A stretch of DNA of 64,000 bases, from assembly GCA_045539625.1 (NCBI GenBank), contig JAZQFS010000025.1, positions 18,626 to 82,625 of the forward strand, read 5' to 3'. Under the pieces are notes generated by a model. The model was not told the DNA's origin and did not search any database. It worked only from the letters and a program-made list of their open reading frames with translations. Below are positions 1 through 58,949 of this stretch, one piece after another (the first letter of the stretch is position 1; the number at the start of each line of letters is the position of its first letter). Made by a program: the position numbers and the translations under genes. The DNA comes from Eubacteriales bacterium (GTDB lineage Bacteria > Bacillota > Clostridia > Oscillospirales > CAG-382).

Positions 1-2295
1 ACCAAATCTGGATACAGCATTTGTTCCGGGTGTAAATGATGCTCTTTCTTCCATTGTTTCAGGGTCATAAACCTTACCGTTTAAAACAAGAATACTGTCA
101 ACAACATATACTCTTTCGCCGATACTTATATCATGCTTATTTGCCACCATATCGACGCCGGCATGAACATAAGCATTATACGTTACGGAGGCTACGTTTT
201 CCTGACCTGCAGGGATATAAACCTCGGATGCTGCGGTGTAAACACCGTCTGCAAGAGAACCGTAGTTATTTAAGAGAATGCCTATCTTTGGATAAACTTC
301 AGCACCGCTTGTCTTTGAAGCTGTTCTTACATATTCGTTATCAATATATTTTTCATCGTACAGGAACTTTGAAGTAGAATCACCGGCAATAGCTGAACCG
401 TCAAACCAAATTGCACCGCCGTTTACGGTAGCAATTTTCGGGAACGCATTAGCCGCATTAGATGCGTCTACATATTCGTTAACACCAAGAGTACCGTAAT
501 TATGAATTCTGGAGTTTGTGTTATCGGTATTTGCCTTGCCGTTAAAGTGAAGGTTGGCAAGAAGATAGCCAGCATCTGCTTCAGCAGCAGAAGGGTAAAA
601 ATTATCGTCCCATACAGCATAAAGAGTTGTATCTTCTGAATAAATCTTGCTTGCATCTGTGATAAGCTCGCCATTCTTTGTTTCCGACCAGCCTACAAAT
701 CGGCTTGTTCCGCAATCTTCAAGAGTATAGTTTGCAAAAGTAACTGTAGAGCTGACCTCTGCAGTATCGGGAACAACTACATCCTTGCCGTTTGCATCAA
801 GAGTAAGGTTGATTTTTTCAGGTGCATACCAGATTTTAACCCATTTATAGTAACGTTTTACAGAGGCTTTGTCTGCACCGTGACCGGAATAAAGACCGAT
901 ACCACAAAGTCCCTTATTAGCTTCTGTAAATGTTTGGGTTACAGTACCGTTAAGTTTTGAGACCTGCCTGCCTTTATATATAAATGATGCGGAGTATTCT
1001 TTAAATTCCGTACCAAAAGCTGAATTTGCTTGATACACCGGTGCACCACTAAGACTAGAATCATTGACAACAACGGAATTACCTAATGCAGCATCAGCTT
1101 TCGCTACATACTCAATAGTATAAACACCTTCGGGATATGTTGTCATTGCATTGTTTTCATCATACGCAACAAACCAAAATCTAGGCCAATTATGATTGGT
1201 TATGAGGCTGTCGCCATCTGTTTTATAATTGTTATAAGCTTTAAGTTTTGCAGACGGCATACCGCTTATTGCAGGTGCTGAATAGACACTGTGTTCGCTT
1301 ATCGCCAAATCAGTACTGTTTGATATTGTTTTTGCAGCGACATCAAAGTCAACAAAGTAAGCAAGTTTACCGTACTGACTTGTTGTAGCAATTTCTTTGG
1401 TACTGTACTTTGCATACAGTGTTGTATCAGTTGAAATCACAACAGGTTCGGTGAGAATTTCACCGTTTTCTGTGAGTGACCAGCCAAGAAATTCAGATGC
1501 TGTTTCGGGAAGGTATTTGGGTTCATATTCAGAAGGAACAAAGTAACCGTTCTTTACAACCCCAATAGCCGCAGGAACAGCACCCTTGACTGAGAATGTT
1601 ACTGTGCAAGATTCGGGAGTGTAGTAGATATTGATATTATCTACATACCATACGTTTTTTGCATTATTTTCATACGTCACAAAGCCGTTGTGTATATAAC
1701 TTGTTGAAGTAACACCGGATTCATAAACATAACTCTTTTCCTGAGTGCTGAAAGAGTCTGATGCAGTTATTGTATAGCCTTTAACAATATTATTGGTGTT
1801 AGATGCACAAATGGCAGCAGTAAAGCCCTGTGATTCCACATCAACTTTTATATCCTGCTGAATTCTGTAAGTTCCGTTCGGTAATTCATTAGAACCTGTC
1901 AACATCCATCTTGAATGGCTTGAAGTACCTTTAGAAGGGTCACCCTTTAGAATCATATCGGTGCTTCCTTCCGTCTTTGCTTCTACTGTTGCAGTAACTC
2001 CGCTTACAGCAAAAGTCAAAGTAGGAAACTGTGAAGTATAATTGCTTGCTGCAAGTTTCTGATTACTAAACGCCCCTGCACTGAGATTGTCAAAGTTTAT
2101 GCTGTAAACAAGCTTTTCCTCTACCAAATCCGTTGTAACCGCTGTTTCCTCAGCAACCTCTGCCTCGAAAACCTCTGCCGCATCGGCTGCGACTTCCTGT
2201 GTTGTTTCTACTGTTCCGACTGCCACGGGTGCAGCAAATGCCACGCTTGAGAGAACCATAAGGCAAGCCAGAACAAAGCTTAAATACTTTTTCAT
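1..2295 (-). CDS. Secreted repeat-containing surface protein (partial; 3' end lies beyond the window edge)
   Basis: ATG at 2295 (complement) follows an AAAGGAG RBS. The N-terminus MKKYLSFVLACLMVLSSVAFAAP looks like a signal peptide. I checked the frame as open at 2295, near 700 and at 1-60. It is absent from the ORF track because no stop lies inside the window. It contains repeated F(L/V)GWSxTxNGE...TLYA(K/V)(Y/W) motifs resembling Listeria-Bacteroides (Flg_new) repeats. Confidence 0.75.
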   Translation of the reverse strand, partial: MKKYLSFVLACLMVLSSVAFAAPVAVGTVETTQEVAADAAEVFEAEVAEETAVTTDLVEEKLVYSINFDNLSAGAFSNQKLAASNYTSQFPTLTFAVSGVTATVEAKTEGSTDMILKGDPSKGTSSHSRWMLTGSNELPNGTYRIQQDIKVDVESQGFTAAICASNTNNIVKGYTITASDSFSTQEKSYVYESGVTSTSYIHNGFVTYENNAKNVWYVDNINIYYTPESCTVTFSVKGAVPAAIGVVKNGYFVPSEYEPKYLPETASEFLGWSLTENGEILTEPVVISTDTTLYAKYSTKEIATTSQYGKLAYFVDFDVAAKTISNSTDLAISEHSVYSAPAISGMPSAKLKAYNNYKTDGDSLITNHNWPRFWFVAYDENNAMTTYPEGVYTIEYVAKADAALGNSVVVNDSSLSGAPVYQANSAFGTEFKEYSASFIYKGRQVSKLNGTVTQTFTEANKGLCGIGLYSGHGADKASVKRYYKWVKIWYAPEKINLTLDANGKDVVVPDTAEVSSTVTFANYTLEDCGTSRFVGWSETKNGELITDASKIYSEDTTLYAVWDDNFYPSAAEADAGYLLANLHFNGKANTDNTNSRIHNYGTLGVNEYVDASNAANAFPKIATVNGGAIWFDGSAIAGDSTSKFLYDEKYIDNEYVRTASKTSGAEVYPKIGILLNNYGSLADGVYTAASEVYIPAGQENVASVTYNAYVHAGVDMVANKHDISIGERVYVVDSILVLNGKVYDPETMEERASFTPGTNAVSRFG

Positions 2296-2371: not shown

Positions 2372-2497
2372 TTATTCGCCTTGCGCTGTCTCGAAAAGTG
2401 ATGAGCCGTCAATGAGAACGTCGCTTCCGTTTAAAATGTCCTCAGTTGAAAGCTTTACGGTGTCCATTTCGGGACGGGTGTACTGCTTTTTGGTCAT
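2372..2497 (-). CDS. Small acidic peptide, 41 aa (MTKKQYTRPEMDTVKLSTEDILNGSDVLIDGSSLFETAQGE); paralog of the peptide at 47987-48130
   Basis: ATG is preceded by GGAGAGGAG. It has its own TTGACA-17-ATAATA promoter. It lies 77 nt upstream of, and co-directional with, the secreted protein gene. It shares the motif KKxYxxPE...(E/Q)DILN(G/A)S...LFE with a second small ORF in the window. It is below the ORF-track size cutoff. Confidence 0.6.
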   Translation of the reverse strand: MTKKQYTRPEMDTVKLSTEDILNGSDVLIDGSSLFETAQGE

Positions 2498-2528
2498 AAT
2501 TGAAAACTCCTCTCCATTTTCTTACATT

Positions 2529-2557
2529 TATTATGCAAGCGCCCGCTTTAATGTCAA
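2529..2557 (-). promoter_or_regulatory. Sigma-A type promoter for the small peptide / secreted protein unit
   Basis: Minus strand has TTGACA (2557-2552), a 17 nt spacer, then ATAATA (2534-2529). Confidence 0.55.
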
Positions 2558-2730: not shown

Positions 2731-2747
2731 ATGGTAGACAATTAAAA

Positions 2748-2848
2748 TCTTATCAAGAGCGGCTGAGGGAACAGGACCTTTGAAGCCCGGCAACCTGTAA
2801 GTTTACAAGGTGCTACTTCCTGCCGGCATTTTGCCGTGAAAGATGAGA
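2748..2848 (+). promoter_or_regulatory. SAM-I (S-box) riboswitch aptamer
   Basis: Sequence is TCTTATCAAGAGCGGCTGAGGGAACAGGACCTTTGAAGCCCGGCAACC...GGTGCTAC...GATGAGA. The P1 pairing is TCTTATC/GATGAGA. It contains the conserved AAGAG-GAGGGA, GCCCGGCAACC and GGTGCTA blocks. It lies directly upstream of metK. Confidence 0.9.
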
Positions 2849-2911
2849 AGTTATTCTTCATTGCTCTTGAACAAAAAAGGGCGTTTTTTTATGCCCGTGA
2901 AAGGACACAAA

Positions 2912-4096
2912 ATGAAAAAGATTCTTTTTACCTCAGAGTCCGTTACCGAAGGACACCCCGACAAAATATGCGACGCCATTTCAGATGCTGTGCTTGATGC
3001 TTATCTTTCACAGGATCCTATGTCAAGAGTTGCTTGTGAAACCATGGTTACAACAGGTCTTTGTATGATTTCGGGTGAAATCACCTCAAAGGGTACTGTT
3101 GATGTTCAGAAAATTGCAAGAGAAACCATCAGAAAAATCGGCTACGACAGAGCAAAATACGGTTTTGACTGCGACACCTGCGCCGTTATCAGTGCGATCC
3201 ACGAGCAGAGCCCCGACATTGCTTTGGGTGTTGACAAGTCTCTTGAAGCAAAAGAGGGCGACAGTGACAAGTACGACACAGGTGCAGGCGACCAGGGACT
3301 TATTTTCGGATATGCCTGCAACGAAACAGATGAGCTTATGCCGCTTCCCATTTCTCTTGCCCACAAGCTTGCAAAGCGTCTTACAGAGGTGAGAAAGAAC
3401 GGTACTCTTCCCTATCTTCGTCCCGACGGAAAAACACAGGTTACGGTTGAATACGTTGACGGCATGCCTTCAAGAATCGAAGCTGTTGTTGTTTCAAGCC
3501 AGCACGATGCAAAGGCAGAGTTAGGTGCAATCAGACGTGACGTTATAAGAGAGGTTATTCGCCCCATTATCCCCGATGAGCTGATGGACGAAAACACCAA
3601 GATATTCATCAATCCCACAGGACGTTTTGTGATTGGCGGCCCAAACGGTGACACAGGTCTTACAGGCAGAAAAATTATAGTTGACACCTACGGCGGTTAT
3701 TCAAGACACGGCGGCGGTGCTTTCTCGGGCAAGGATCCCACAAAGGTTGACAGAAGTGCGGCATATGCGGCACGTTACGTTGCAAAGAATGTAGTTGCGG
3801 CAGGACTTGCTGACAAGTGCGAGGTTCAGATTGCATATGCCATCGGCGTTGCAAGACCTGTATCCGTTCTTGTTGACACCTTCGGAACTTCTAAAGTTGA
3901 CGAAGAAAAGATTGCAAAGGCAGTTGAAAAGTGCTTTGACCTTCGCCCTGCGGCAATTATTGAAATGCTTGACCTTCGCCGTCCCATCTACAGTCCTGTT
4001 TCCTCCTACGGTCATATGGGCAGAGAAGACCTTGACGTAGTTTGGGAAAAGACTGACAAGGCAGAGGCACTCAAGGCGGCAGTTGCAGCTTTATAA
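2912..4096 (+). CDS. metK: S-adenosylmethionine synthase
   Basis: Begins [21 protein letters not shown]; also has GAGDQG and DTYGG motifs. The start was moved from the track ORF (2843) to the ATG at 2912, which follows AAAGGA; the longer ORF would overlap the riboswitch. Confidence 0.95.
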
Positions 4097-39424: not shown

Positions 39425-39491
39425 GCTGCATACTATTTACGGCGCATGGTCTTAAATCAAGGTTATGCGCCGAAAAATTCAAGGAGATTAT

Positions 39492-40835
39492 ATGAAAAAA
39501 ACAAAGCTTTTCCTGCTTTTGCTTATGATGCTTATGTTTTCTTTATGCTGCAGTGCCAAGGAAGACTATGTGCGTGTCGGTCTGAGCTTTGGAAAGAGTG
39601 CCGCAAAAAGTGCTTCATTTTCCTTTAGTTCAGGATTTCAGGCAGGCTACATCAATGAGCAAGGTTCTTTTACGCCTGCTATGTTTTTCGCATCAAACGC
39701 AGTGCGTGCAGAAAGCACAAGTGCAGGAACATTTAAAATATTTGACAGTGAAAGCGGCGGTGCTCTTTTTGAGTGGCAAAAGGGCAAGGAAGCGGTTATC
39801 TGCCCAAGCGGCTCCGACAGAGTCTCGGCTTACACCGTTTACAGCGGCATAAAATACCCGTATTACATAATTCTTTCATCAAATTCGGACGGCAGCTTCA
39901 ATGTTATAAACTATGTTGAAACAGAGCAGTACATAAAGGGCGTACTTCCGGGTGAGGTTTACCCCAGCTGGCATGAGGAGGCGCTTAAAGCTGCCGCTGT
40001 TGCAACAAGAACATTCACCTATCAGAGCCGAGGCGGAAAGCACAAGGCAAACGGAGTGGACCTTTGCAAATCTACCTGCTGTCAGGTTTACAGCGGTATA
40101 TCAAAGTGTACTGCCACCACAAACAAAGCAACCGACGACACCAAAGGTCAGGTGCTTCTTTACAACGGCAAGCTCATTACCGCCGTGTACCACGCAATAA
40201 GCGGCGGCATCACCGAAAGCGCCGCAGGTGCCTGGGGCTCAAGTGCCGCACTTTATCCCTATCTTACGGTAGTTGAAACGCCCTTTGAGGATTATTCAAG
40301 TCTGTCAAACGGCAAGTGGAGCAAGTTTATTACCGACAAGGAGCTTTCTGCTCTTGTTGCTTCATCTTCATACAAAAACAAAATTTCAACAAGCATAAAA
40401 TCCATAACAGTAAACGATTCCACCCCGGGATATCTTAACAACGTAACACTCACCGACACATCGGGAGCAAGCGTTGAGCTTAAAACATCCAGTCAGGTAC
40501 GCTCATTCTTTTCAAAATATGCCATCAGTGCAAATTTCACCTTAGAGCGTAAATATCTTCCCACAGACAGCGGTCAGACAACCGCCGTTATAAGTGCCGA
40601 CGGTGCCTACACAACAAGCCCCGACAAAGCTGTTTACTATCTGACAGCCGACGGCAAAAAATCAGCAGCAGGAGCTTCAGGCGGATATCTGCTTGACGGC
40701 AAGGGCTACGGACACGGCGTGGGACTGAGCCAGTACGGAAGTCAGTTTGCGGCAAAAGCGGGCTACACCTACACCGAGATTTTAGGCATCTACTACCCCG
40801 GAACGGTTATTGCAGACTACTCGGCATTAAACTAA
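39492..40835 (+). CDS. spoIID: SpoIID/LytB-domain protein (sporulation/peptidoglycan remodelling)
   Basis: Signal peptide, then EQYIKGVLPGEV...W..EALKAAAVA.RT, CQVY.G, AVYHAISGG.TE and G.GYGHGVGLSQYG motifs. The ATG at 39492 follows AAGGAG. Confidence 0.8.
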   Translation: MKKTKLFLLLLMMLMFSLCCSAKEDYVRVGLSFGKSAAKSASFSFSSGFQAGYINEQGSFTPAMFFASNAVRAESTSAGTFKIFDSESGGALFEWQKGKEAVICPSGSDRVSAYTVYSGIKYPYYIILSSNSDGSFNVINYVETEQYIKGVLPGEVYPSWHEEALKAAAVATRTFTYQSRGGKHKANGVDLCKSTCCQVYSGISKCTATTNKATDDTKGQVLLYNGKLITAVYHAISGGITESAAGAWGSSAALYPYLTVVETPFEDYSSLSNGKWSKFITDKELSALVASSSYKNKISTSIKSITVNDSTPGYLNNVTLTDTSGASVELKTSSQVRSFFSKYAISANFTLERKYLPTDSGQTTAVISADGAYTTSPDKAVYYLTADGKKSAAGASGGYLLDGKGYGHGVGLSQYGSQFAAKAGYTYTEILGIYYPGTVIADYSALN

Positions 40836-45815: not shown

Positions 45816-46023
45816 TTTTAATTCCTCTTATGTATAATTATCATTATTCTACATATATATAATGCTGTTACTTTTTATATACCCGTATATTATACGCCCT
45901 GCAAGCTCTGTTGTCAAGTAAAATTACCCAAGCAATATAACAAAATGTTTTCAAAAATTACATACACCGTTACAGCACTTCTGCTAAATTATATAGTATA
46001 AAGAAAAAATGGAGGTTATCACT

Positions 46024-46638
46024 ATGTCAATTGATATGTCCGCACTCAACAAGGTTTCCTACGGTCTGTTTGTTCTCACCTCAAAGCTTGGTGACAGGCA
46101 CGGCGGCTGTATAATAAACACGGCAATGCAGTTAACTGCAGATCCAATAACCTTTTCTGTTGCTGTCAACAAGCAAAACTTCACTCACGATATGCTAATG
46201 AAAAGCGGAAAGCTGAATATTTCGGTTATATCTCAGTCTGCGCCCTTTGATTTATTCAAGCACTTCGGCTTCCAAAGCTCAAGAGATGTTGACAAATTTG
46301 CAGACTTCAAAGATGCCAAATTAAGCGAAAACGGACTTTATTATCTCACAAAGCACTGCAGTGCCGTAATATGTGCAAAGGTAGTGCATACCATTGACTG
46401 TCAGACTCACACGCTGTTTATCGTAAGTCTTACAGATGCCTTTACGGTATCCGAGGAAGAGCCTGCCACATATGCTTATTATCACAAGCACATAAAGCAA
46501 GCGGCAAAGCCCTCCGAAGAAAAGAAAAAGGGATATGTCTGCAAAATCTGCGGATACGTTTACGAAGGCGATCCCTTGCCCGAGGACTTTATCTGTCCGT
46601 GGTGCAAGCATCCCGCATCGGATTTTGAAAAGCTGTAA
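46024..46638 (+). CDS. Flavin reductase-like domain fused to rubredoxin (high-molecular-weight rubredoxin type)
   Basis: The N-terminal domain has a flavin-reductase pattern (YGLFVLTS......GCIINT). The C-terminus, YVCKICGYVYEG...PEDF.CPWCKH, is a rubredoxin with CxxC...CPxC. The ATG at 46024 follows GGAGG. Confidence 0.75.
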   Translation: MSIDMSALNKVSYGLFVLTSKLGDRHGGCIINTAMQLTADPITFSVAVNKQNFTHDMLMKSGKLNISVISQSAPFDLFKHFGFQSSRDVDKFADFKDAKLSENGLYYLTKHCSAVICAKVVHTIDCQTHTLFIVSLTDAFTVSEEEPATYAYYHKHIKQAAKPSEEKKKGYVCKICGYVYEGDPLPEDFICPWCKHPASDFEKL

Positions 46639-47154: not shown

Positions 47155-47229
47155 TGGTGACCCGTACGGGAATCGAACCCATGTTTTCGCCGTGAGAGGG
47201 CGATGTCTTAACCGCTTGACCAACGGGCC
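47155..47229 (-). tRNA. tRNA-Glu (anticodon CUC), CCA encoded
   Basis: The reverse complement is GGCCCGTTGGTCAAGCGGTTAAGACATCGCCCTCTCACGGCGAAAACATGGGTTCGATTCCCGTACGGGTCACCA. The cloverleaf folds, with anticodon loop CT-CTC-AC. Confidence 0.9.
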
Positions 47230-47400: not shown

Positions 47401-47475
47401 AGCGGAATTGTGTAACGGTTAGCACGACAGACTCTGACTCTGTTTGTCTGGGTTCAAATCCTAGTTCCGCTGCCA
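47401..47475 (+). tRNA. tRNA-Gln (anticodon CUG), CCA encoded
   Basis: AGCGGAATTGTGTAACGGTTAGCACGACAGACTCTGACTCTGTTTGTCTGGGTTCAAATCCTAGTTCCGCTGCCA. Anticodon stem is ACAGA/TCTGT with loop CT-CTG-AC. Confidence 0.9.
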
Positions 47476-47506: not shown

Positions 47507-47601
47507 TTTGTGTCCGCAAGGTCACAACATCGTTTGCCCGCAGTGCAACACCGATTGAAGCAAAGCGAGATCATTAATGTATCATTCGGACACAACAGCA
47601 A

Positions 47602-47633
47602 CGGAGCACCCGTTTGGGGTGCTCCGATTTTTG
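47602..47633. terminator. Strong GC-rich terminator-like hairpin with no associated gene
   Basis: CGGAGCACCC-GTTTG-GGGTGCTCCG, followed by ATTTTTG on the plus strand and TTGCTGTTGTGT on the minus strand. Confidence 0.6.
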
Positions 47634-47893
47634 TTACTGTGCTTTAGGGACGTCTGCAATCCTTGTCAGAACAGTATTATCAATACGGTAAGCAAGCTTT
47701 ATACCGGTCAAAGCTCCGTCAACCGCTGTTTTGAAGGGCTGTGATATAAATTTTTCTGCTTTTTACATATACTATATTATACCCTTTTAATACACTTGTC
47801 AAATTTATTACATGAAAAACATAAAAATCCGAACAATTTTAATAAAATTTCCCATAATCGGATGTTCAATTTTTACATTTTTTTGCGATTGAT

Positions 47894-47986
47894 GAAAAAA
47901 AGCCCCATAAAATGAAATAACGCACCGAATCGGTGCGTCTGCAATCATGTAAAACAAGCTGCTATTTCATTCAAATGCCTAGGGGA
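47894..47986 (-). terminator. Compound terminator of the small-peptide gene
   Basis: On the minus strand, an outer stem CCCC..ATGAAATA / TATTTCAT..GGGG encloses an inner CGCACCG/CGGTGCG hairpin and ends in GGGGC-TTTTTTT. Confidence 0.6.
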
Positions 47987-48130
47987 TTAAAGTCCAAGTG
48001 AAGCCAAGCTTTCAAAAAGAACCTCTGCATTGATGAGAGCTTCGTTTTCTGCTTCTCCACTTGCGTTGAGGATATCCTGAGCCGAAACCGCGGACACTTC
48101 AACTTCGGGTGTTGCGTAAGTCTTCTTCAT
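47987..48130 (-). CDS. Small acidic peptide, 47 aa (MKKTYATPEVEVSAVSAQDILNASGEAENEALINAEVLFESLASLGL); paralog of 2372-2497
   Basis: ATG follows GGGAGGA. It has its own TTGACA-17-TACAAT promoter and its own terminator. It shares the N-terminal motif with the first peptide. It is below the ORF-track cutoff. Confidence 0.6.
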   Translation of the reverse strand: MKKTYATPEVEVSAVSAQDILNASGEAENEALINAEVLFESLASLGL

Positions 48131-48162
48131 AAGAAAAATCCTCCCACCTAATTGTTGCCTTC

Positions 48163-48191
48163 ATTGTACACCCGTCAAAGAAAAATGTCAA
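48163..48191 (-). promoter_or_regulatory. Sigma-A promoter of the small-peptide gene
   Basis: Minus strand has TTGACA (48191-48186), a 17 nt spacer, then TACAAT (48168-48163). Confidence 0.7.
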
Positions 48192-48375: not shown

Positions 48376-48849
48376 TTGTCACAAGTATTTGACAAAGAAC
48401 GTGCACACGATACCTTTTTCGGTATGCTTCAAACCGACAGGCTGCACAGAAGCGTGGTTGAGGATTTTCTGTCGGTGCTGGGAATACACAGAAGCCAGCA
48501 TCTTACACTGCTGTATCTGTCAAAATCCGAAAACTGTCCGTCGCAAAAGGCTATTGCAGAGCATTTTAAAATAAGTCCTGCCGCAGTTACGGTAACCTTG
48601 AAAAAGCTTGAAGAGGGCGGCTATATACTGCGCAGCAGCGTAGAAAAGGATTCAAGATACAACAGCATTGCCCTTTCCGAGAAAGGAAAAGAAGTTGTTG
48701 CACAGTCAAGAAAGCTTTTTGAGGAAACAGACATTGCAATGTTCAGCGAATTTACCGATGAGGAATACGAGCTGTTCAACAGATGCATAAACAAAATGAT
48801 GGACGGTCTTACCAAATTCAGGCAAAACCGCAACACAAATCAATTGTAG
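48376..48849 (+). CDS. MarR-family transcriptional regulator
   Basis: Winged-helix region (LTLLYL......SQKAIAEHF.ISPAAVTVTLKKLE..GYI.R......D.R.N.I.LSEKG). The TTG at 48376 lies 8 nt after GGGAG, whereas the track ORF start sits inside the promoter. Confidence 0.8.
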   Translation: MSQVFDKERAHDTFFGMLQTDRLHRSVVEDFLSVLGIHRSQHLTLLYLSKSENCPSQKAIAEHFKISPAAVTVTLKKLEEGGYILRSSVEKDSRYNSIALSEKGKEVVAQSRKLFEETDIAMFSEFTDEEYELFNRCINKMMDGLTKFRQNRNTNQL

Positions 48850-48865
48850 AAAGGAAGAATGTAAC

Positions 48866-50611
48866 TTGAATCGTTGGTTTAAATACATAAAGCCCTACCT
48901 GCCCTATTTCATACTTGGACCGTTATGTATGATTATCGAGGTGCTGGGCGAGGTTTTTATGCCCCGTCTTATGGCAAAAATCATTGACACGGCGGTAGTT
49001 GAAAACGTGGCAACAGGCAATTGGAAAGGCGTACTTATAATTGCGGCAGGTATGATTGTACTTGCACTTATAATGATGCTGGGAGGCGTTGGAGGCGCAT
49101 ACTTCGGTGCAAGAGCCTCTGTCAACTTCGGTGCAGACCTTCGTCTTGACGTCTACAGAAAAATACAGAAGTTTTCCTTTGCAAACATTGACAAATTCAA
49201 CACAGGCTCACTTGTTACACGTCTGACAAATGACGTAACACAGCTGCAGAACTTTGTCAATATGCTGCTTCGTATGTTTCTGCGCTCACCCGGTATGCTT
49301 ATCGGTGCCGTTATTATGGCAATACGCATAAATCCGAAGCTCGCTCTCATTCTTGCAATCACCATTCCCATAATGCTGTGCTTTATCGGCATTATCATTA
49401 AGGTAGGCTTTCCACGTTTCGGCAGAATGCAGACCAAAATCGATGCTCTCAACTCAACGGTACAGGAAAATCTTACCAACATCCGTGTTGTAAAGAGCTT
49501 TGTACGTGAAGAGCACGAGCAGGACAAATTTGAAACTGCAAACCGCAACCTTAAGCAAGCGGGTATTCACGCCATAAGCGTTATGATTTTTATGTCCCCT
49601 CTTATGATGCTTCTTATGCACCTGACCTCAATTGCCGTTATATGGTTTGGCGGCGGTCAGGTAATTGTGGGCACAATGAGTGTTGCGGATTTATCTTCCT
49701 TTATTACATATATCACACAGATTCTTATGTCCCTTATGATGTTCTCAATGCTGTTTATGAGCACCAGCCGTGCTTTTGCTTCTGGCAAGAGAATATGTGA
49801 GGTTATGGATGAAAAAATCGACCTTGATGATGCACTTGCTTCTCGGAAGGACAAGGAAGTTACCGAAGGTACAGTTGAATTCAAGGACGTATCCTTCCGT
49901 TACTACAAGGACAGCGAGGAAAAGGTGCTTAACAACATCAACCTTGTCATTCCCGCAGGAAAAACAGTGGGCATTATCGGCTCAACGGGAAGCGGTAAGA
50001 CAACACTTGTTTCTCTTATTCCAAGACTTTACGATGCCGACGATGGCGAGGTGCTTGTTGACGGTGTAAATGTAAAGGAATACTCCCTTAAAAACTTAAG
50101 AAACGGCGTAGGTATGGTGCTTCAGAAGAACGTGCTGTTTTCGGGAAGCATCAGGGACAATCTTCTCTGGGGTGACGAAAACGCAGACGACGAAACAATC
50201 ATAAACGCCGCAGAAAGTGCACAGGCACACACCTTCATTTCCTCCTTCAAGGACGGATATGACACCGAGCTTGAGCAGGGCGGAAGCAACGTTTCGGGCG
50301 GTCAGAAGCAAAGACTTTGTATTGCAAGAGCACTGCTGAAAAAGCCCAAGATTCTCATTCTTGACGACTCCACAAGTGCCGTTGACACAGCAACCGAAGC
50401 AAGAATAAGACACGCCTTTGCAAATGAGCTGCGTGACTCTACCAAAATCATCATTGCACAGCGTATCGGCTCTGTAAGGGATGCGGATATGATTATCGTT
50501 GTAAACGAAGGCGAAATCACAGGCATCGGAAGCCATGCACAGCTTCTTGAAAACAACAAGGAATATCAGGAAATATACTACTCACAGGTTGACGGAAAGG
50601 AGGACAAGTAA
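48866..50611 (+). CDS. ABC exporter, fused permease/ATPase (heterodimer half 1)
   Basis: Six-TM exporter domain followed by GSTGSGKTT, LSGGQKQR and ILILDDSTSAVD. TTG start follows GAAAGGAAG. Confidence 0.85.
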   Translation: MNRWFKYIKPYLPYFILGPLCMIIEVLGEVFMPRLMAKIIDTAVVENVATGNWKGVLIIAAGMIVLALIMMLGGVGGAYFGARASVNFGADLRLDVYRKIQKFSFANIDKFNTGSLVTRLTNDVTQLQNFVNMLLRMFLRSPGMLIGAVIMAIRINPKLALILAITIPIMLCFIGIIIKVGFPRFGRMQTKIDALNSTVQENLTNIRVVKSFVREEHEQDKFETANRNLKQAGIHAISVMIFMSPLMMLLMHLTSIAVIWFGGGQVIVGTMSVADLSSFITYITQILMSLMMFSMLFMSTSRAFASGKRICEVMDEKIDLDDALASRKDKEVTEGTVEFKDVSFRYYKDSEEKVLNNINLVIPAGKTVGIIGSTGSGKTTLVSLIPRLYDADDGEVLVDGVNVKEYSLKNLRNGVGMVLQKNVLFSGSIRDNLLWGDENADDETIINAAESAQAHTFISSFKDGYDTELEQGGSNVSGGQKQRLCIARALLKKPKILILDDSTSAVDTATEARIRHAFANELRDSTKIIIAQRIGSVRDADMIIVVNEGEITGIGSHAQLLENNKEYQEIYYSQVDGKEDK

Positions 50612-52501
50612 ATGGCAGGAAGAAATTTACAGGAGCTTAAAAGCCGTTACAACAGCTCCTCCTCAAAATTCGGCGGTTCGGGCGGTCCGGGCGGTCCGGG
50701 CGGCGGTCCGAGAGGACCGGGGGGTGCTGCAATGCGCGGTGCATCAAAGCCCAAAAACGTAATGCCAACCATAAAACGTCTTTTCGGATACATTTCACAG
50801 TACAAGGCAAAGCTGATTTTCGTTATGTTCTGCATGGCATTCAGCACAGGCTCTACACTTATTTCAGGCTATATGTTAAGACCTGTCATCAACAACATTG
50901 CAGACCTTAGCACCTCTGCTTCCGACAGAATCAAATATCTGATTGTAATGCTCGGCGTTTTGCTTGCCGTTTACTTTATCGGCGTTGCCTCCACCTACAT
51001 ACAGAGCAGAACCATGCTGAGAATATCACAAAGTGCCATTGAAACCTTAAGAAACGATTTATTCAGAAAGGTACAGCGTCTTCCTCTTCGTTTCCACGAC
51101 AACGAAAACACAGGCGAAATTATGAGCCGTTTTACCAACGACGTTGACAACATCGGTATGATGCTTGACTCAACAATTGTAAGCCTTGTTTCAGGCACCG
51201 TCACGCTTATCGGCACACTTTGCATGATGCTCTACACCAACGTATGGCTTTCAATTATCATTCTTGTGTGCACTCCCCTGTTTCTCAAGGCAGGCGGAAA
51301 GATTGCTTCTTCAAGCAGAAAATTCTATTCTGCACAGCAGGCGTCCTTAGGTGCTGTGAACGGCTACATTGAAGAGTCGGTTACGGGACAGAAGGTTGTA
51401 AAGGTATTCAACCACGAACAGGCTTGTATTGACGAGTTTGCACTTCTCAACGATGACCTGAGACGCACCCAGATAAACGCCAACTTCTTCGGCGGCATTA
51501 TGGGCCCCGTAATAGGAAATATGAGCCAGGTGAGCTACAGCATAACGGCAGGTGTGGGCGGTATTCTGTGTGCTCTGGGCAAATTCGACATCGGCGGTCT
51601 TACGGTTTTTGTAAACTACGCAAGACAGTTTTCACGTCCCATTAACGAAATATCAATGCAAATGACAACGGTTTTCTCGGCTCTTGCAGGTGCTGAACGT
51701 GTTTTTGCCGTAATGGACAAGGAACCTGAACAGCCCGACAGTGAAAATTCCGTTGCAATGCCCGATATGAAGGGACACGTAATCTTAGACAATGTATCCT
51801 TCGGCTATGTTCCAGAAAAGACGGTTCTTAAAAACATTTCGCTGTACGCAAAGCCGGGGCAAAAAATAGCTTTTGTCGGCTCGACAGGTGCAGGTAAAAC
51901 CACTGTTACAAACCTTCTCAACCGCTTTTATGATATTGACGAGGGCACAATAACCATTGACGGCGTAAACATCAAGGACATAAAGCGTGAGGATTTGCGA
52001 AAGAACATCACCATGGTGCTTCAGGACACCCACCTGTTCACAGGTACGGTTATGGAAAACATCCGTTACGGCAGACTTGATGCTACAGACGAGGAAGTCA
52101 TTGCCGCCGCAAAAACAGCAAGTGCACATTCCTTCATCATGCGACTTTCCGACGGCTACAATACAGTGCTTGAGGGAGACGGTGCAAACCTTTCTCAGGG
52201 ACAAAGACAGCTTTTAAACATTGCACGTGCGGCTCTCAGCAAAGCACCCATACTTGTTCTTGACGAAGCTACAAGCTCTGTTGACACAAGAACAGAACGT
52301 CACATTGAGCACGGCATGGACAGACTTATGAAGGACAGAACAACCTTTGTTATAGCTCACAGACTCTCCACGGTACGCAATTCAAACGCCATTATGGTGC
52401 TTGAAAACGGCGTGATAGTCGAAAGAGGCGACCACGATGACCTGCTGCGTCAGAAAGGCAGATACTACGAGCTTTACACAGGCAAAAAAGAGCTTGACTG
52501 A
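50612..52501 (+). CDS. ABC exporter, fused permease/ATPase (heterodimer half 2)
   Basis: Gly/Pro-rich N-terminus, then a TM domain and GSTGAGKTT, LSQGQRQL and LVLDEATSSVD. The ATG is adjacent to the upstream stop. Confidence 0.85.
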   Translation: MAGRNLQELKSRYNSSSSKFGGSGGPGGPGGGPRGPGGAAMRGASKPKNVMPTIKRLFGYISQYKAKLIFVMFCMAFSTGSTLISGYMLRPVINNIADLSTSASDRIKYLIVMLGVLLAVYFIGVASTYIQSRTMLRISQSAIETLRNDLFRKVQRLPLRFHDNENTGEIMSRFTNDVDNIGMMLDSTIVSLVSGTVTLIGTLCMMLYTNVWLSIIILVCTPLFLKAGGKIASSSRKFYSAQQASLGAVNGYIEESVTGQKVVKVFNHEQACIDEFALLNDDLRRTQINANFFGGIMGPVIGNMSQVSYSITAGVGGILCALGKFDIGGLTVFVNYARQFSRPINEISMQMTTVFSALAGAERVFAVMDKEPEQPDSENSVAMPDMKGHVILDNVSFGYVPEKTVLKNISLYAKPGQKIAFVGSTGAGKTTVTNLLNRFYDIDEGTITIDGVNIKDIKREDLRKNITMVLQDTHLFTGTVMENIRYGRLDATDEEVIAAAKTASAHSFIMRLSDGYNTVLEGDGANLSQGQRQLLNIARAALSKAPILVLDEATSSVDTRTERHIEHGMDRLMKDRTTFVIAHRLSTVRNSNAIMVLENGVIVERGDHDDLLRQKGRYYELYTGKKELD

Positions 52502-56772: not shown

Positions 56773-56825
56773 ATAATCGGAATAAAAAAAGTGCGCCTAC
56801 AGTCGCCGAAAGGATGGTCAAACGT

Positions 56826-58949
56826 ATGAAAAACAGAAAATCAAGGTTGCTTTTTGCCGCTTGCTTAATTGTACTTTTTGTGTGCAGTCTTATGTGCTTT
56901 GCAGAGCAAGCTGTGTTTACCCAGCACAAGGTAATTCTCAGCTATGACAAGCAGGCAAACACCGTTGATGCCGACATTTACATTTCAAAGGGTACGGCAA
57001 TAGTCGGCTATTGCAGCTTTACCTATGACAGCAGTGTGCTTCAGCTTACCGATGTCAACGGAAATGCAGTAAATGCAGGAAATGTTCCATCCTTCAGCCA
57101 AGACGGAAGTATATTTCTTGACGATGTTATCACAGCCCACAACGGCGTTGTGATTACCGATATAGGCAAGGGAACGCCTAACCTTGTCAACCCCGAAGAA
57201 GGCTACTTTATGTTTGCGTGGTTTCTCCCGGGAAGTATTCCCTGCTTAAGTGCAAACGAAGGTGTCGATGTGCTTATTGCAAGTGTAAAATTTGAGCTTA
57301 TAGACGACATAACCTATGAAGAGTTTGACAAGGATACCTTCTGGGTTGCCGACAGCGAAGTTACCGACAAGGTCAAGGGCTGGTATCCCGGCATTGTTGT
57401 TATGAACGACAAGCAGCAGCAGTTCAACTTTGACGGCACTGTTGAAGACGGCGATCTGTTCCTGCTGGAATATGAATTTGAAGACCTTGAAGGTTATTTT
57501 AAGCCTTCAGAAAAGCCTGAAAACGAGCCCGACACTGAGCCCGATAATGAGCCTGATACTGAACCCGACGTTGAGCCCGATGCAGAACCCGATGTTGAGC
57601 CTGATACTGAACCCGATGCAGAACCCGATGTTGAGCCTGATACAGAGCCCGATACCGAGCCCGATACTGAGCCCGACACTGAGCCTGATACCGAGCCTGA
57701 TACAGAGCCCGATACTGAGCCTGACACTGAGCCTGACACTGAGCCCGATACCGAGCCTGATACAGAGCCTGATACAGAGCCCGATGACACACAGGACAAG
57801 GACACAACAACAGTTCTTGCAGAAAACACGGCTTTCAAAGCAGACTTCAGACTTGAAATAACAAAGACAGACTCCACCGTACATATATCCTGGGAAAAGC
57901 CATCGGACATAGATAAGCTTGAAAATTATGTTGCCGTACTTTGCGACGGTGATTACAATGTAATAAAGGAAGTTGTTATTTTCAACTCCAGCACCTCCTA
58001 CACCTTCAAGAATTTAAAGGACGATTTTACATACAAGCTTTACTTCTACGGTGCAGACGGCAATAACACCTACTGTTCGGACATATACACAGTAAAAACC
58101 CCTGCTGCACAGAACAAAGAGCCCATAATTTTCAACGTCACATACGATGCAGGCAAAGGCAGGCTTTACGGTCTTGAAGCCGAGGACGTGCTCTTCGGTG
58201 AGCTTCTTACCAAAGTTCCCGCAGTAACTGCTCCCGACGGCAAGTATTTTGCAGGCTGGACAAAGGACGGAAAAAGCTTATACAATGTATCTCTTCCCGT
58301 TTACTCTTCTGTAAAGCTCAAGGCTTTGTATACCGATGTTTCTCCCGTCACAGCCTCTTCATACATAACAGGCTACACCGACGGCACCTTCAAGCCTGAC
58401 GGGCTTATTACACGTGCGGAAGCGGCTTCGCTTATAGCAAGGCTTTCGCCTGAATTTGATTCCGTTCAAAGCTTTTTCCACGGCTTTTCCGACTGTACGG
58501 AGGGTGCATGGTACGAAAAGGCAGTTGCCTTCTGCAGCTCAAAGGGATACATTACAGGCTACCTTGACGGCACCTTCAATCCTTCGGGCAACATTTCAAG
58601 AGCGGAATTTGCAACAATTCTTGTAAGAGTATTCTCATTTGATGTTCAGAACAAAACAGATGTATTTTCCGATATGAGCGGTCATTGGGCTTGTCCCTAT
58701 GTTTCACAGCTTTTCGGTGCAAGTATTGTTACTCCCGATGAAAACGGCAAGTTCAGACCGTCTGAAAAGCTTACCCGTAAAGATGCCGTTGTGATGCTCA
58801 ACAAGTGTCTGGGTATTACCCCCGACAAGGCTGCCATTGACAGCTATCTTGACAGTAACGGCTACAAATTCACCGACGTTGAACAGTACAAGGACTGCTT
58901 CTATCCCATTATGGCGGCAACCCTTAAAGACGAGGACTACAACAGATAA
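56826..58949 (+). CDS. Cell-surface protein: signal peptide, cohesin-like domain, EPDx linker, Listeria-Bacteroides repeat, three SLH domains
   Basis: Signal peptide MKNRKSRLLFAACLIVLFVCSLMCFA. Cohesin-like block CSFTYDSSVLQLTDV...IASVKFELIDD. 22 EPDx repeats. The motif YFAGWTKDG...LKALY. SLH motifs: YITGYTDGTFKPDGLITRAEAA, YITGYLDGTFNPSGNISRAEFA and FRPSEKLTRKDAV. Confidence 0.75.
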   Translation: MKNRKSRLLFAACLIVLFVCSLMCFAEQAVFTQHKVILSYDKQANTVDADIYISKGTAIVGYCSFTYDSSVLQLTDVNGNAVNAGNVPSFSQDGSIFLDDVITAHNGVVITDIGKGTPNLVNPEEGYFMFAWFLPGSIPCLSANEGVDVLIASVKFELIDDITYEEFDKDTFWVADSEVTDKVKGWYPGIVVMNDKQQQFNFDGTVEDGDLFLLEYEFEDLEGYFKPSEKPENEPDTEPDNEPDTEPDVEPDAEPDVEPDTEPDAEPDVEPDTEPDTEPDTEPDTEPDTEPDTEPDTEPDTEPDTEPDTEPDTEPDTEPDDTQDKDTTTVLAENTAFKADFRLEITKTDSTVHISWEKPSDIDKLENYVAVLCDGDYNVIKEVVIFNSSTSYTFKNLKDDFTYKLYFYGADGNNTYCSDIYTVKTPAAQNKEPIIFNVTYDAGKGRLYGLEAEDVLFGELLTKVPAVTAPDGKYFAGWTKDGKSLYNVSLPVYSSVKLKALYTDVSPVTASSYITGYTDGTFKPDGLITRAEAASLIARLSPEFDSVQSFFHGFSDCTEGAWYEKAVAFCSSKGYITGYLDGTFNPSGNISRAEFATILVRVFSFDVQNKTDVFSDMSGHWACPYVSQLFGASIVTPDENGKFRPSEKLTRKDAVVMLNKCLGITPDKAAIDSYLDSNGYKFTDVEQYKDCFYPIMAATLKDEDYNR
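57525..57788 (+). repeat. In-frame 12-nt tandem repeat, 22 units (GAGCC(C/T)GA(T/C)ACN encoding EPDT/N/V/A/D)
   Basis: I counted the units directly in the sequence. Synonymous variation (GAG/GAA, CCC/CCT, GAT/GAC, ACT/ACA/ACC) separates the units. Confidence 0.95.

Follow-up and report, generated by a model that had tools for sequence, protein, structure and literature searches.

Small acidic peptide genes of gut and rumen Clostridia with a putative lasso-like leader

Two short open reading frames lying 45 kb apart on the same 64-kb stretch of DNA (the whole stretch analysed, hereafter the window) encode similar acidic peptides, and the first-pass annotation proposed that they represent a real peptide family with a leader-plus-core or signalling-type layout and no maturation enzyme nearby. 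This raises the question of whether such small ORFs are genes at all and, if so, what kind of product they specify. To answer this, we examined the expression signals of both ORFs, collected their homologues from public protein and genome data, and compared the gene neighbourhoods of family members. All three points of the proposal were supported, although several details required correction.

The two genes and their expression signals

Both ORFs were confirmed and were found to lie on the minus strand, which had not been stated previously; each is preceded by a strong sigma-70-like promoter and an RBS (Table 1). The copy 1 promoter is the same site that was first read as TTGACA-17-ATAATA, and the gap between this gene and the ATG of the next gene is 76 nt rather than 77 nt. 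The downstream gene encodes a protein with a signal peptide and a Listeria-Bacteroides repeat (PF09479, 8e-7), and no minus-strand terminator was found in the gap; copy 1 is probably co-transcribed with its large neighbour. In contrast, copy 2 has its own terminator and is monocistronic; the window and the corresponding locus of another strain (L007) are 98.6% identical down to 47753 and then diverge, and the large neighbour of copy 2 has been lost in this strain.

Table 1. Positions of the two peptide genes, their putative parts and neighbouring features in the window.
Feature	Position	Strand	Description
Large secreted Listeria-Bacteroides-repeat protein gene	1..2295	-	Cut by the window end (765 aa visible)
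Copy 1 peptide gene	2372..2497	-	41 aa plus stop; MTKKQYTRPEMDTVKLSTEDILNGSDVLIDGSSLFETAQGE
Copy 1 putative core	2372..2422	-	DVLIDGSSLFETAQGE; 16 aa, net charge -4, plus stop
Copy 1 putative leader	2423..2497	-	Residues 1-25; MTKKQYTRPEMDTVKLSTEDILNGS
Copy 1 RBS	2507..2515	-	GGAGAGGAG; 9 nt before the ATG
Copy 1 promoter-like site	2530..2557	-	TTGACA-16-CATAAT; 11/12
Orphan promoter-like site	47774..47802	-	TTGACA-17-TAATAT; in strain L007 precedes a large secreted-protein gene, absent here
Intrinsic-terminator-like hairpin plus T-run	47919..47939	-	After copy 2
Copy 2 peptide gene	47987..48130	-	47 aa plus stop; MKKTYATPEVEVSAVSAQDILNASGEAENEALINAEVLFESLASLGL
Copy 2 putative core	47987..48058	-	GEAENEALINAEVLFESLASLGL; 23 aa, net charge -5, plus stop
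Copy 2 putative leader	48059..48130	-	Residues 1-24; MKKTYATPEVEVSAVSAQDILNAS
Copy 2 RBS	48140..48148	-	GGTGGGAGG; 9 nt before the ATG
Copy 2 promoter-like site	48163..48191	-	TTGACA-17-TACAAT; 11/12
MarR regulator and two ABC exporter half-transporter genes	48376..52501	+	MarR 48376-48849; ABC 48866-50611 and 50612-52501; divergent from copy 2

The similarity of the two peptides is far above chance (BLASTP E=1e-9, 16/40 identities; Smith-Waterman score 68 against 19.4 ± 3.9 in 20,000 shuffles, none of which reached it; z=12.5). Neither peptide contains Cys, and their net charges are -4 and -6. No further copy exists among the 1382 ORFs of the window. Likewise, no maturation enzyme was found in the window by BLAST with the proteins of the gene clusters described below and by a Pfam scan of ten of the large ORFs not otherwise identified, all of which are housekeeping; the only radical SAM protein is a MiaB-type methylthiotransferase.

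The peptide family and its putative leader

Homologues of each copy exist in public data (P0001-P0006 for copy 1 and P0007-P0015 for copy 2). The exact copy 2 protein is already present in NCBI-derived protein sets (P0007), so that only copy 1 is truly unrecorded, with a best match of 98% identity (P0001). A profile built from these homologues found 234 cluster representatives at 50% identity (E<=1e-3), almost all 35-60 aa long; the family has at least this many clusters and more than 119 genome loci, almost all from gut or rumen Clostridia. Scans of Pfam and NCBIfam with both window peptides and eight diverse relatives found no family, the only hits being weak ones to the N-terminus of the lasso-peptide model lasso_cyano. 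A metagenome scan with the alignment of subfamily 1 returned only one locus, and our literature searches found no paper describing these peptides.

Across the family the first ~25 residues are conserved, MKKxYxxPE(I/L/V/M)...(D/E)DI(I/L)xxS, and are followed by a variable acidic tail; in the putative leader of copy 1 the K, Y, P, D-I-L and S columns are invariant. Substitutions in this conserved half are mostly synonymous or at third codon positions; the copy 2 module is near-identical in P0007-P0015 and in the related genome loci L013, L042, L136 and L137. We infer a boundary between leader and core after the invariant Ser. The C-terminal halves, which had been described as divergent, are not simply so: both copies belong to a branch with a second conserved motif, (V/I/L)(L/I)(I/V)(D/N)(G/A)xx(L)(F/W), represented by SDVLIDGSSLF in P0001-P0006 and by ALI(N/D)AxxLF at the end of the variable region of copy 2 and its homologues. 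The AlphaFold2 model of copy 1 has no compact fold (pLDDT 68.8, pTM 0.19).

Two profile comparisons bear on the function of the conserved module. First, a profile built only from 13 peptides lying next to PqqD clusters picked exactly the two window ORFs out of 1382 (E=2.3e-7 for copy 1 and 1.7e-8 for copy 2; next best 4.6). Second, an hhalign comparison with published Firmicutes lasso-peptide leaders (PMC7533575), to which the presumed sequence of the paeninodin leader was added, gave a probability of 87% and E=4e-6 over K.Y..P.(hydrophobic)E.

Gene neighbourhoods of family members

In 19 loci a family member lies beside an HPr-kinase-like P-loop protein with a conserved SGtGKSTH motif, a PqqD-type recognition protein (PF05402 at 1e-11, closest to lasso B1 chaperone models), an S26B signal-peptidase-like protease with conserved GxSMxP, HR and GDN motifs, an ABC exporter without a peptidase domain and an NTP_transf_5 nucleotidyltransferase (2e-42), in a fixed order after the peptide gene; in 13 loci a PqqD gene lies in an operon with the peptide gene. 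In addition, one Cys-rich member (locus L044) is followed directly by a radical SAM enzyme. However, only 11 of 67 genome loci with at least 3 kb of downstream sequence carry an enzyme, and no PqqD, HprK-like, S26 or NTP_transf_5 gene lies beside roughly 15 distinct loci of the two window-type branches, the only LIDG-like member found with all four enzymes being that of locus L020.

The link to a large secreted protein proved to be a family-wide rule rather than a local accident. Of 108 peptides, 85 have a same-strand ORF of at least 300 aa ending within 300 nt upstream, and 64 of 108 within 30 nt; copy 1, in contrast, precedes its large gene, as do 30 of 100 members. What these large proteins share is a C-terminal domain, and the tail motifs of the peptides segregate by domain type (P=0.001 and P=0.0006). 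A strain variant of the copy 1 locus (L143) has a complete 757-aa protein with the cluster-1 C-terminal domain. A search with this domain gave only six hits and no informative names, a sequence search of the Protein Data Bank with two types of the C-terminal domain gave nothing below E=0.4, and the AlphaFold2 model of the BIG C-terminal domain fragment was unusable (pLDDT 36.6).

Interpretation and comparison with known systems

Both ORFs are real, separately promoted protein-coding genes and dispersed paralogues of a large family that no curated database holds. The interpretation that we consider somewhat more likely than not is that they are orphan precursors of leader-guided, processed and exported linear peptides, although every step of this mechanism is inferred. 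In this model, a PqqD-type RiPP recognition protein binds the leader, the peptide may be tailored by the HPr-kinase-like P-loop enzyme and the NTP_transf_5 nucleotidyltransferase, the leader is removed near the invariant Ser, possibly by the S26B signal-peptidase-like protease, and an ABC exporter secretes the linear core, resembling a lasso pathway without the cyclase. There is precedent for such tailoring, as related kinases and nucleotidyltransferases act on Firmicutes lasso precursors (PMC7533575). Because these enzymes lie beside relatives but not in the window, the two genes would depend on a cluster elsewhere in the genome. The conserved tail motif of the window branches is unusual for a hypervariable RiPP core; furthermore, the -3 position before the invariant Ser is often not small, so the classical S26 AxA rule is not met, and the S26 enzyme may instead process the large secreted protein. 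The covariation of core type with the C-terminal domain of the adjacent protein suggests that the mature peptide probably acts together with that protein.

If this reading is right, hundreds of species of gut and rumen Clostridia make a class of leader-guided, exported linear peptides that no database models. The class appears to come from a lasso-type recognition, tailoring and export toolkit that has lost the cyclase and gained a signal-peptidase-like protease, a protease type not mentioned in a 2023 review of RiPP leader proteases (PMC10885120), and the pairing with C-terminal domains of large secreted glycoside hydrolases and repeat proteins suggests a new layer in how these bacteria build or regulate their cell surface and fibre-degrading apparatus. 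A more far-reaching and distinctly speculative possibility is that each large secreted enzyme or adhesin carries a C-terminal domain that specifically recognises, or is modified or anchored through, the short acidic peptide encoded next to it, with one cyclase-less, lasso-derived machine maturing and exporting the peptides of many dispersed peptide-protein pairs in a genome, including the two in the window.

The strongest alternative, though unlikely, is that the peptides are unprocessed small cytoplasmic proteins serving the neighbouring secreted protein as a dedicated chaperone, secretion adaptor or folding partner of its C-terminal domain, with no RiPP-type maturation in this branch. The tight gene linkage, the covariation of tail and domain type, the conservation of the LIDGxxLF tail motif across species and the lack of enzymes near the window-type loci examined are consistent with this view. 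However, the universally conserved part is the N-terminal module rather than the tail, and it is shared with members in PqqD/protease/exporter operons and before a radical SAM enzyme; the large proteins carry Sec signal peptides whereas the peptide has none, so that the two would meet only briefly unless the peptide is exported, and the predicted model shows no fold.

It is less likely that the peptides are secreted quorum-sensing-type signals, with copy 2 exported by the divergently encoded MarR-controlled ABC pair and the signal controlling nearby surface-protein genes. Copy 2 and all its relatives examined lie head-to-head with MarR and the two ABC exporter genes, subfamily 1 relatives lie before an AraC regulator and a giant SLH protein, and the genes can be read as small, strongly expressed and monocistronic. 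Nevertheless, this synteny extends to unrelated flanking genes (ThiF, RNase T and a sugar nucleotidyltransferase) and may be simple gene-order conservation. No RRNPP, Rgg or Agr-type receptor or AgrB lies nearby, the neighbours being the MarR and ABC genes, a SAM riboswitch with metK, and a large secreted protein; the polar and charged N-terminus lacks the hydrophobic signal sequence or amphipathic character of known Gram-positive pheromone precursors, and copy 1 has no exporter nearby.

Genuine lasso-peptide precursors are very unlikely despite the lasso-like front of the leader and the lasso-like enzymes beside relatives. Neither an asparagine-synthetase-like cyclase nor a transglutaminase-like B2 protease was found in the enzyme-bearing loci whose cluster and flanking genes were scanned, or in the window. 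Cleavage after Asn would give G1...D7 in copy 1 and A1...E8 in copy 2, but the residue that would be core position 1 varies across the family (G, A, T, N, K, Q, L and others), no acidic residue is fixed at positions 7-9, and the window copies, whose putative leaders end in LNGS and LNAS, have no Thr at position -2. A double-glycine leader was rejected as position -2 is variable and the ~570-aa cluster exporters, whose membrane domain starts at residue 32, have no C39 domain, and a graspetide or an N-glycosylation sequon (N-x-S) was rejected as the Asn is not conserved across the family. A cis-acting upstream ORF (attenuation-type leader peptide) is also very unlikely: although copy 1 precedes the large gene without an intervening terminator, most members lie downstream of the large gene, copy 2 has its own terminator and no downstream gene, and the amino-acid sequence is conserved across unrelated contexts with synonymous drift. 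Finally, chance ORFs, suggested only by the small size, are refuted by conservation and the codon-position pattern.

Among known systems, the Firmicutes lasso-peptide clusters with tailoring enzymes (paeninodin and pseudomycoidin type) share a short precursor with a leader beginning MKK-(W/Y)-x-x-P-x-(hydrophobic)-E and, in relatives of the window peptides, a PqqD protein closest to lasso B1 models, a D-type ABC exporter without a peptidase domain, an HprK-like P-loop protein and an NTP_transf_5 protein. They differ in that here an S26B signal-peptidase-like protein sits in the B2 position, the leader is about 5 residues longer and ends in DI(I/L)xxS instead of T-x, no ring-forming residue pair is conserved, and the peptide gene is coupled to a large secreted-protein gene. 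RRE-dependent radical SAM RiPPs (sactipeptide and ranthipeptide type) are approached only by the Cys-rich member in L044, whose 482-aa radical SAM enzyme has a radical SAM domain starting at about residue 140, leaving an N-terminal extension. The presence of several unlinked copies per genome sharing a leader but differing in core (two in the window, at least four peptides at three loci in MAG CAKSEL01, and tandem pairs in many loci) may be compared with the prochlorosin, Nif11 and NHLP sets, but the leader family is different, there is no double-glycine cleavage motif and no LanM or cyclodehydratase is present. An ER/archaeal-type S26 peptidase (best NCBIfam match sigpep_I_arch) encoded in an operon with a large secreted protein is possibly reminiscent of tapA-sipW-tasA type operons, in which a dedicated S26B peptidase would process specific secreted proteins; however, no TasA or TapA homologues are present, and the operon also holds a PqqD protein, a kinase-like protein, a nucleotidyltransferase, an ABC exporter and a small leader-bearing peptide. 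Lastly, the same trio of protein types occurs in the HprK-related kinase/PqqD/nucleotidyltransferase cassettes defined only by comparative genomics (PqqD_rel_X TIGR04353 'HPr-rel-A system', HprK_rel_B TIGR04355 and SynChlorMet ScmC TIGR04249), to which the cluster proteins give weak hits far below the curated cut-offs (14.9, 19.6 and 24.5 bits against 35, 200 and 125, respectively), indicating distinct subfamilies; these widespread cassettes appear to have no assigned substrate peptide, whereas here a candidate substrate family is adjacent.

Two small peptide genes and their family

Both small ORFs were found to be present on the minus strand (see table), with copy 1 encoding MTKKQYTRPEMDTVKLSTEDILNGSDVLIDGSSLFETAQGE and copy 2 encoding MKKTYATPEVEVSAVSAQDILNASGEAENEALINAEVLFESLASLGL. 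Copy 1 is preceded by a promoter-like site and by a GGAGAGGAG RBS located 9 nt before the ATG, and it lies 76 nt upstream of a gene, cut by the window edge, for a signal-peptide-bearing protein with a Listeria-Bacteroides repeat, with no terminator between them. Copy 2 has a TTGACA-17-TACAAT site, a GGTGGGAGG RBS and its own terminator. The two peptides align with a BLASTP E-value of 1e-9, and their local alignment score of 68 was not reached by any of 20,000 shuffles (19.4 +/- 3.9). Motif and HMM scans of all 1382 window ORFs revealed no third copy. A third family member, MKKKYTAPEITTTALTNADILNGSDVLIDGSSLFDDAQ, which lies between a large protein and AraC plus a 1767-aa SLH protein, occurs in the same metagenome samples as exact or near-exact copies of both window peptides (fetched loci L001-L006 (P0002) and L007-L012 / L142-L145); the window organism or a close relative may therefore carry at least three copies.

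Each copy has close homologues in public protein sets. Subfamily 1 (homologues P0001-P0006) keeps ...ADILNGSDVLIDGSSLF, whereas subfamily 2 (P0007-P0015) keeps MKKTYxxPEVEVSAVSAQDILNxS, followed by a variable stretch ending in ALI(N/D)AxxLF. A profile of both subfamilies, run against 1.84 billion representative proteins, identified 234 clusters at E<=1e-3, nearly all of which are 35-60 aa in length. These are overwhelmingly from MAGs of Lachnospiraceae, Oscillospiraceae, Ruminococcus and other Clostridia from human gut, rumen and other animal guts. A few family loci (L068, L059, L061, L085, L100 and L127) are in MAGs labelled Alistipes, Bacteroidales or Prevotella; L068 has the typical Clostridia-type cluster, so this may reflect a binning error or horizontal transfer. 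Two loci (L013 and L014) sit on IMG/VR contigs classified as viral, although L013 is the MarR-ABC-peptide locus syntenic with the window, which makes the viral call doubtful. Among orthologues of copy 2, differences within the first 25 codons are mostly third-position or synonymous (for example 8 of 12, 13 of 19 and 7 of 9), while the upstream DNA diverges more freely; selection therefore acts on the protein. Neither Pfam nor NCBIfam has a model for any of the ten members tested.

Coordinates of features in the window and at related loci
Sequence	Coordinates	Strand	Feature
window	1-2295		Large protein gene next to copy 1; compared with L143:4117-6390
window	2372-2497	-	Copy 1 peptide gene
window	2557..2530		Copy 1 promoter-like site, TTGACA-16-CATAAT (11/12)
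window	2747-2849	+	SAM-I riboswitch (RF00162, 73.7 bits)
window	2862-2883		Terminator-like hairpin of the riboswitch
window	2912-4096	+	metK
window	39465-40835		SpoIID
window	46009-46638		Flavin reductase-rubredoxin gene
window	47158-47229	-	tRNA gene
window	47401-47472	+	tRNA gene
window	47600-47802		Region downstream of copy 2; compared with L007:4590-6603
window	47626..47602		Strong terminator
window	47753		Position at which identity to L007 stops
window	47802..47774		Promoter-like site retained downstream of copy 2
window	47987-48130	-	Copy 2 peptide gene
window	56814-58949	+	711-aa protein with three C-terminal SLH domains
L033	156-629		Pro/Thr-rich protein
L067	385-984		Pro/Thr-rich protein
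L068	4228-4722		Pro/Thr-rich protein
L082	4851-5357		Pro/Thr-rich protein
L044	2832-4441	-	Cys-rich family member followed by radical SAM enzyme

The conserved N-terminal module and the neighbourhoods of relatives

Across the family, the first ~25 residues are conserved as M-K-(K/E)-x-Y-x-x-P-E-(hydrophobic)-x-(hydrophobic)...(D/E)-D-I-(I/L)-x-x-S, in which K, Y, P, D-I and S are essentially invariant, whereas the rest is short, acidic and variable. The window copies belong to a branch whose tails also share (V/I/L)(L/I)(I/V)(D/N)(G/A)xxL(F/W). AlphaFold2 gave no compact fold for copy 1 (pTM 0.19), as expected for a peptide that becomes ordered only on a partner. The K-x-(Y/W)-x-x-P-x-(hydrophobic)-E start is the pattern of Firmicutes lasso-peptide leaders such as MKKDWTIPTLEVLDINMTMA and MKAWNTPVIETLEINETAA (PMC7533575, Table 3). 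A profile-profile comparison of the family leader with those published leaders, to which a presumed paeninodin leader was added without reference to a source, gave a probability of 87% and E=4e-6 over 14 columns. The only signal from curated models is a weak match to the first 9-13 residues of a lasso-peptide model.

Next, we clustered all neighbours in the fetched loci. In 19 loci the peptide gene is followed, in a fixed order, by genes for a ~160-200-aa Pro/Thr-rich protein that is probably membrane-bound and has no family assignment; a ~255-aa HPr-kinase-like P-loop protein with a conserved SGtGKSTH motif and weak hits to ScmC and HprK-related kinase B; a ~92-aa PqqD-family protein (PF05402, 1e-11), closest to lasso B1 chaperone models but below their cut-offs; a ~150-aa S26B signal-peptidase-like protein with conserved GxSMxP, HR and GDN motifs, whose best match is archaeal/ER-type signal peptidase I; a ~570-aa ABC exporter without a peptidase domain; and a ~390-aa NTP_transf_5 nucleotidyltransferase (2e-42). 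No asparagine-synthetase-like cyclase or transglutaminase-like B2 protease was found in these clusters or their flanks, among the proteins scanned. One Cys-rich member, MKEAYETPELEIILIDEEDIIFSSGGTCSDVCTDGECSLE, at locus L044, is instead followed directly by a 482-aa radical SAM enzyme (PF04055) and a TupA-like ATP-grasp protein, a second and different maturation context for the same leader. A leader HMM built only from the 13 peptides adjacent to PqqD clusters, which contains no window-type sequence, still retrieved exactly the two window ORFs (E=1.7e-8 and 2.3e-7; next best 4.6). The same N-terminal module is therefore used by peptides that sit with two different kinds of RRE-type peptide-maturation machinery, and this is the strongest evidence that it is a RiPP-type leader.

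Association with large secreted proteins

The link with a large secreted protein, noted for copy 1 in the first-pass annotation, turned out to be a family rule. Of 108 family genes with enough upstream sequence, 85 have a same-strand ORF of at least 300 aa ending within 300 nt upstream, and 64 have one ending within 30 nt; 30 of 100 have such an ORF starting just downstream, and 71 of 78 have one on at least one side. These large proteins have diverse N-terminal parts, including GH5 cellulase and Listeria-Bacteroides or InlB-type repeats, and what they share is a C-terminal domain of ~200-350 aa, which comes in several types with no Pfam model or PDB relative. In the C-terminal ~300 aa of the large proteins at loci L025, L066, L082 and L089, domain type 0 starts with a Cys-containing acidic motif (D-x-D-G-x-C-D-x-C); type 1 (SGIRFKASVS...EYGFIV...RPY...YG) is also unmodelled, and both are uncharacterised domains of many large Clostridia surface proteins. 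Peptide tail type follows domain type: xLP-type Pro-rich tails occur in 9 of 17 peptides next to domain type 0 and in 0 of 15 next to type 1, whereas LIDGxxLF-like tails show the reverse, 0 of 17 against 8 of 15 (p=0.001 and 0.0006; counts not corrected for phylogeny). Where the enzyme cassette is present, the large gene heads the same gene string.

The large secreted protein next to copy 1 differs between strains. At the copy 1 locus, the variant L143 shares 97% DNA identity through the peptide gene and the first ~110 nt (~35 codons) of the large gene, beyond which the proteins share only 49% identity over ~350 aa and then diverge; L143 has a complete 757-aa neighbour with the type-1 C-terminal domain but a different middle region. 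The large-protein genes therefore look like recombination hot spots beside a conserved peptide gene. At the copy 2 locus, a 98.6%-identical strain (L007/L008) carries a large secreted-protein gene after the terminator, whereas in the window the promoter-like site and a strong terminator remain and the gene is gone, which looks like a strain-specific deletion or replacement.

Interpretation of the window genes and comparison with known systems

BLAST with all cluster proteins found no PqqD, HprK-like, S26 or NTP_transf_5 gene in the window, and a Pfam scan of ten of the large window ORFs not otherwise identified found none of these either, and no lasso cyclase or RiPP radical SAM. The surroundings are housekeeping (a SAM riboswitch with metK, in an ordinary arrangement divergent from copy 1, GH38, IspH-S1, CysRS, MiaB-type, RNase Y and SpoIID), and the same is true of about 15 distinct loci of the two window-type branches. 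Two tRNA genes on opposite strands lie between the copy 2 locus and the flavin reductase-rubredoxin gene. The SLH-domain protein shows that the organism has an S-layer-type cell envelope, and SpoIID indicates a spore former. Only one locus, L020, combines a LIDG-like tail and a type-1 neighbour with all four enzymes. Family copies are typically multiple and dispersed within a genome; MAG CAKSEL01 has at least four peptides at three loci, and many loci hold tandem pairs.

Taken together, the two ORFs are genes of a family with a leader and core layout, whose leader is homologous to those of peptides encoded beside PqqD/protease/exporter or radical SAM genes, and they are most likely orphan precursor genes of a leader-guided, processed and exported linear peptide class. 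In this model, we infer that PqqD binds the leader, that the kinase-like and nucleotidyltransferase proteins tailor the peptide, by analogy with the tailoring of Firmicutes lasso precursors summarised in PMC7533575, that cleavage happens at the invariant Ser with the S26 enzyme as the leader protease, that the peptide is exported, and that a cassette exists elsewhere in this genome. The main alternative, that this branch works unprocessed as a partner of the neighbouring protein, cannot be excluded.

In the literature and databases searched, the peptide family itself, a cyclase-less cassette with an S26-type peptidase, and the systematic pairing with co-varying C-terminal domains of secreted proteins appear to be undescribed; it is possible, although the less likely reading, that the peptide-protein pairing is a new kind of system. 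The protein types themselves are known from lasso clusters and from Haft-type 'HPr-rel' cassettes.
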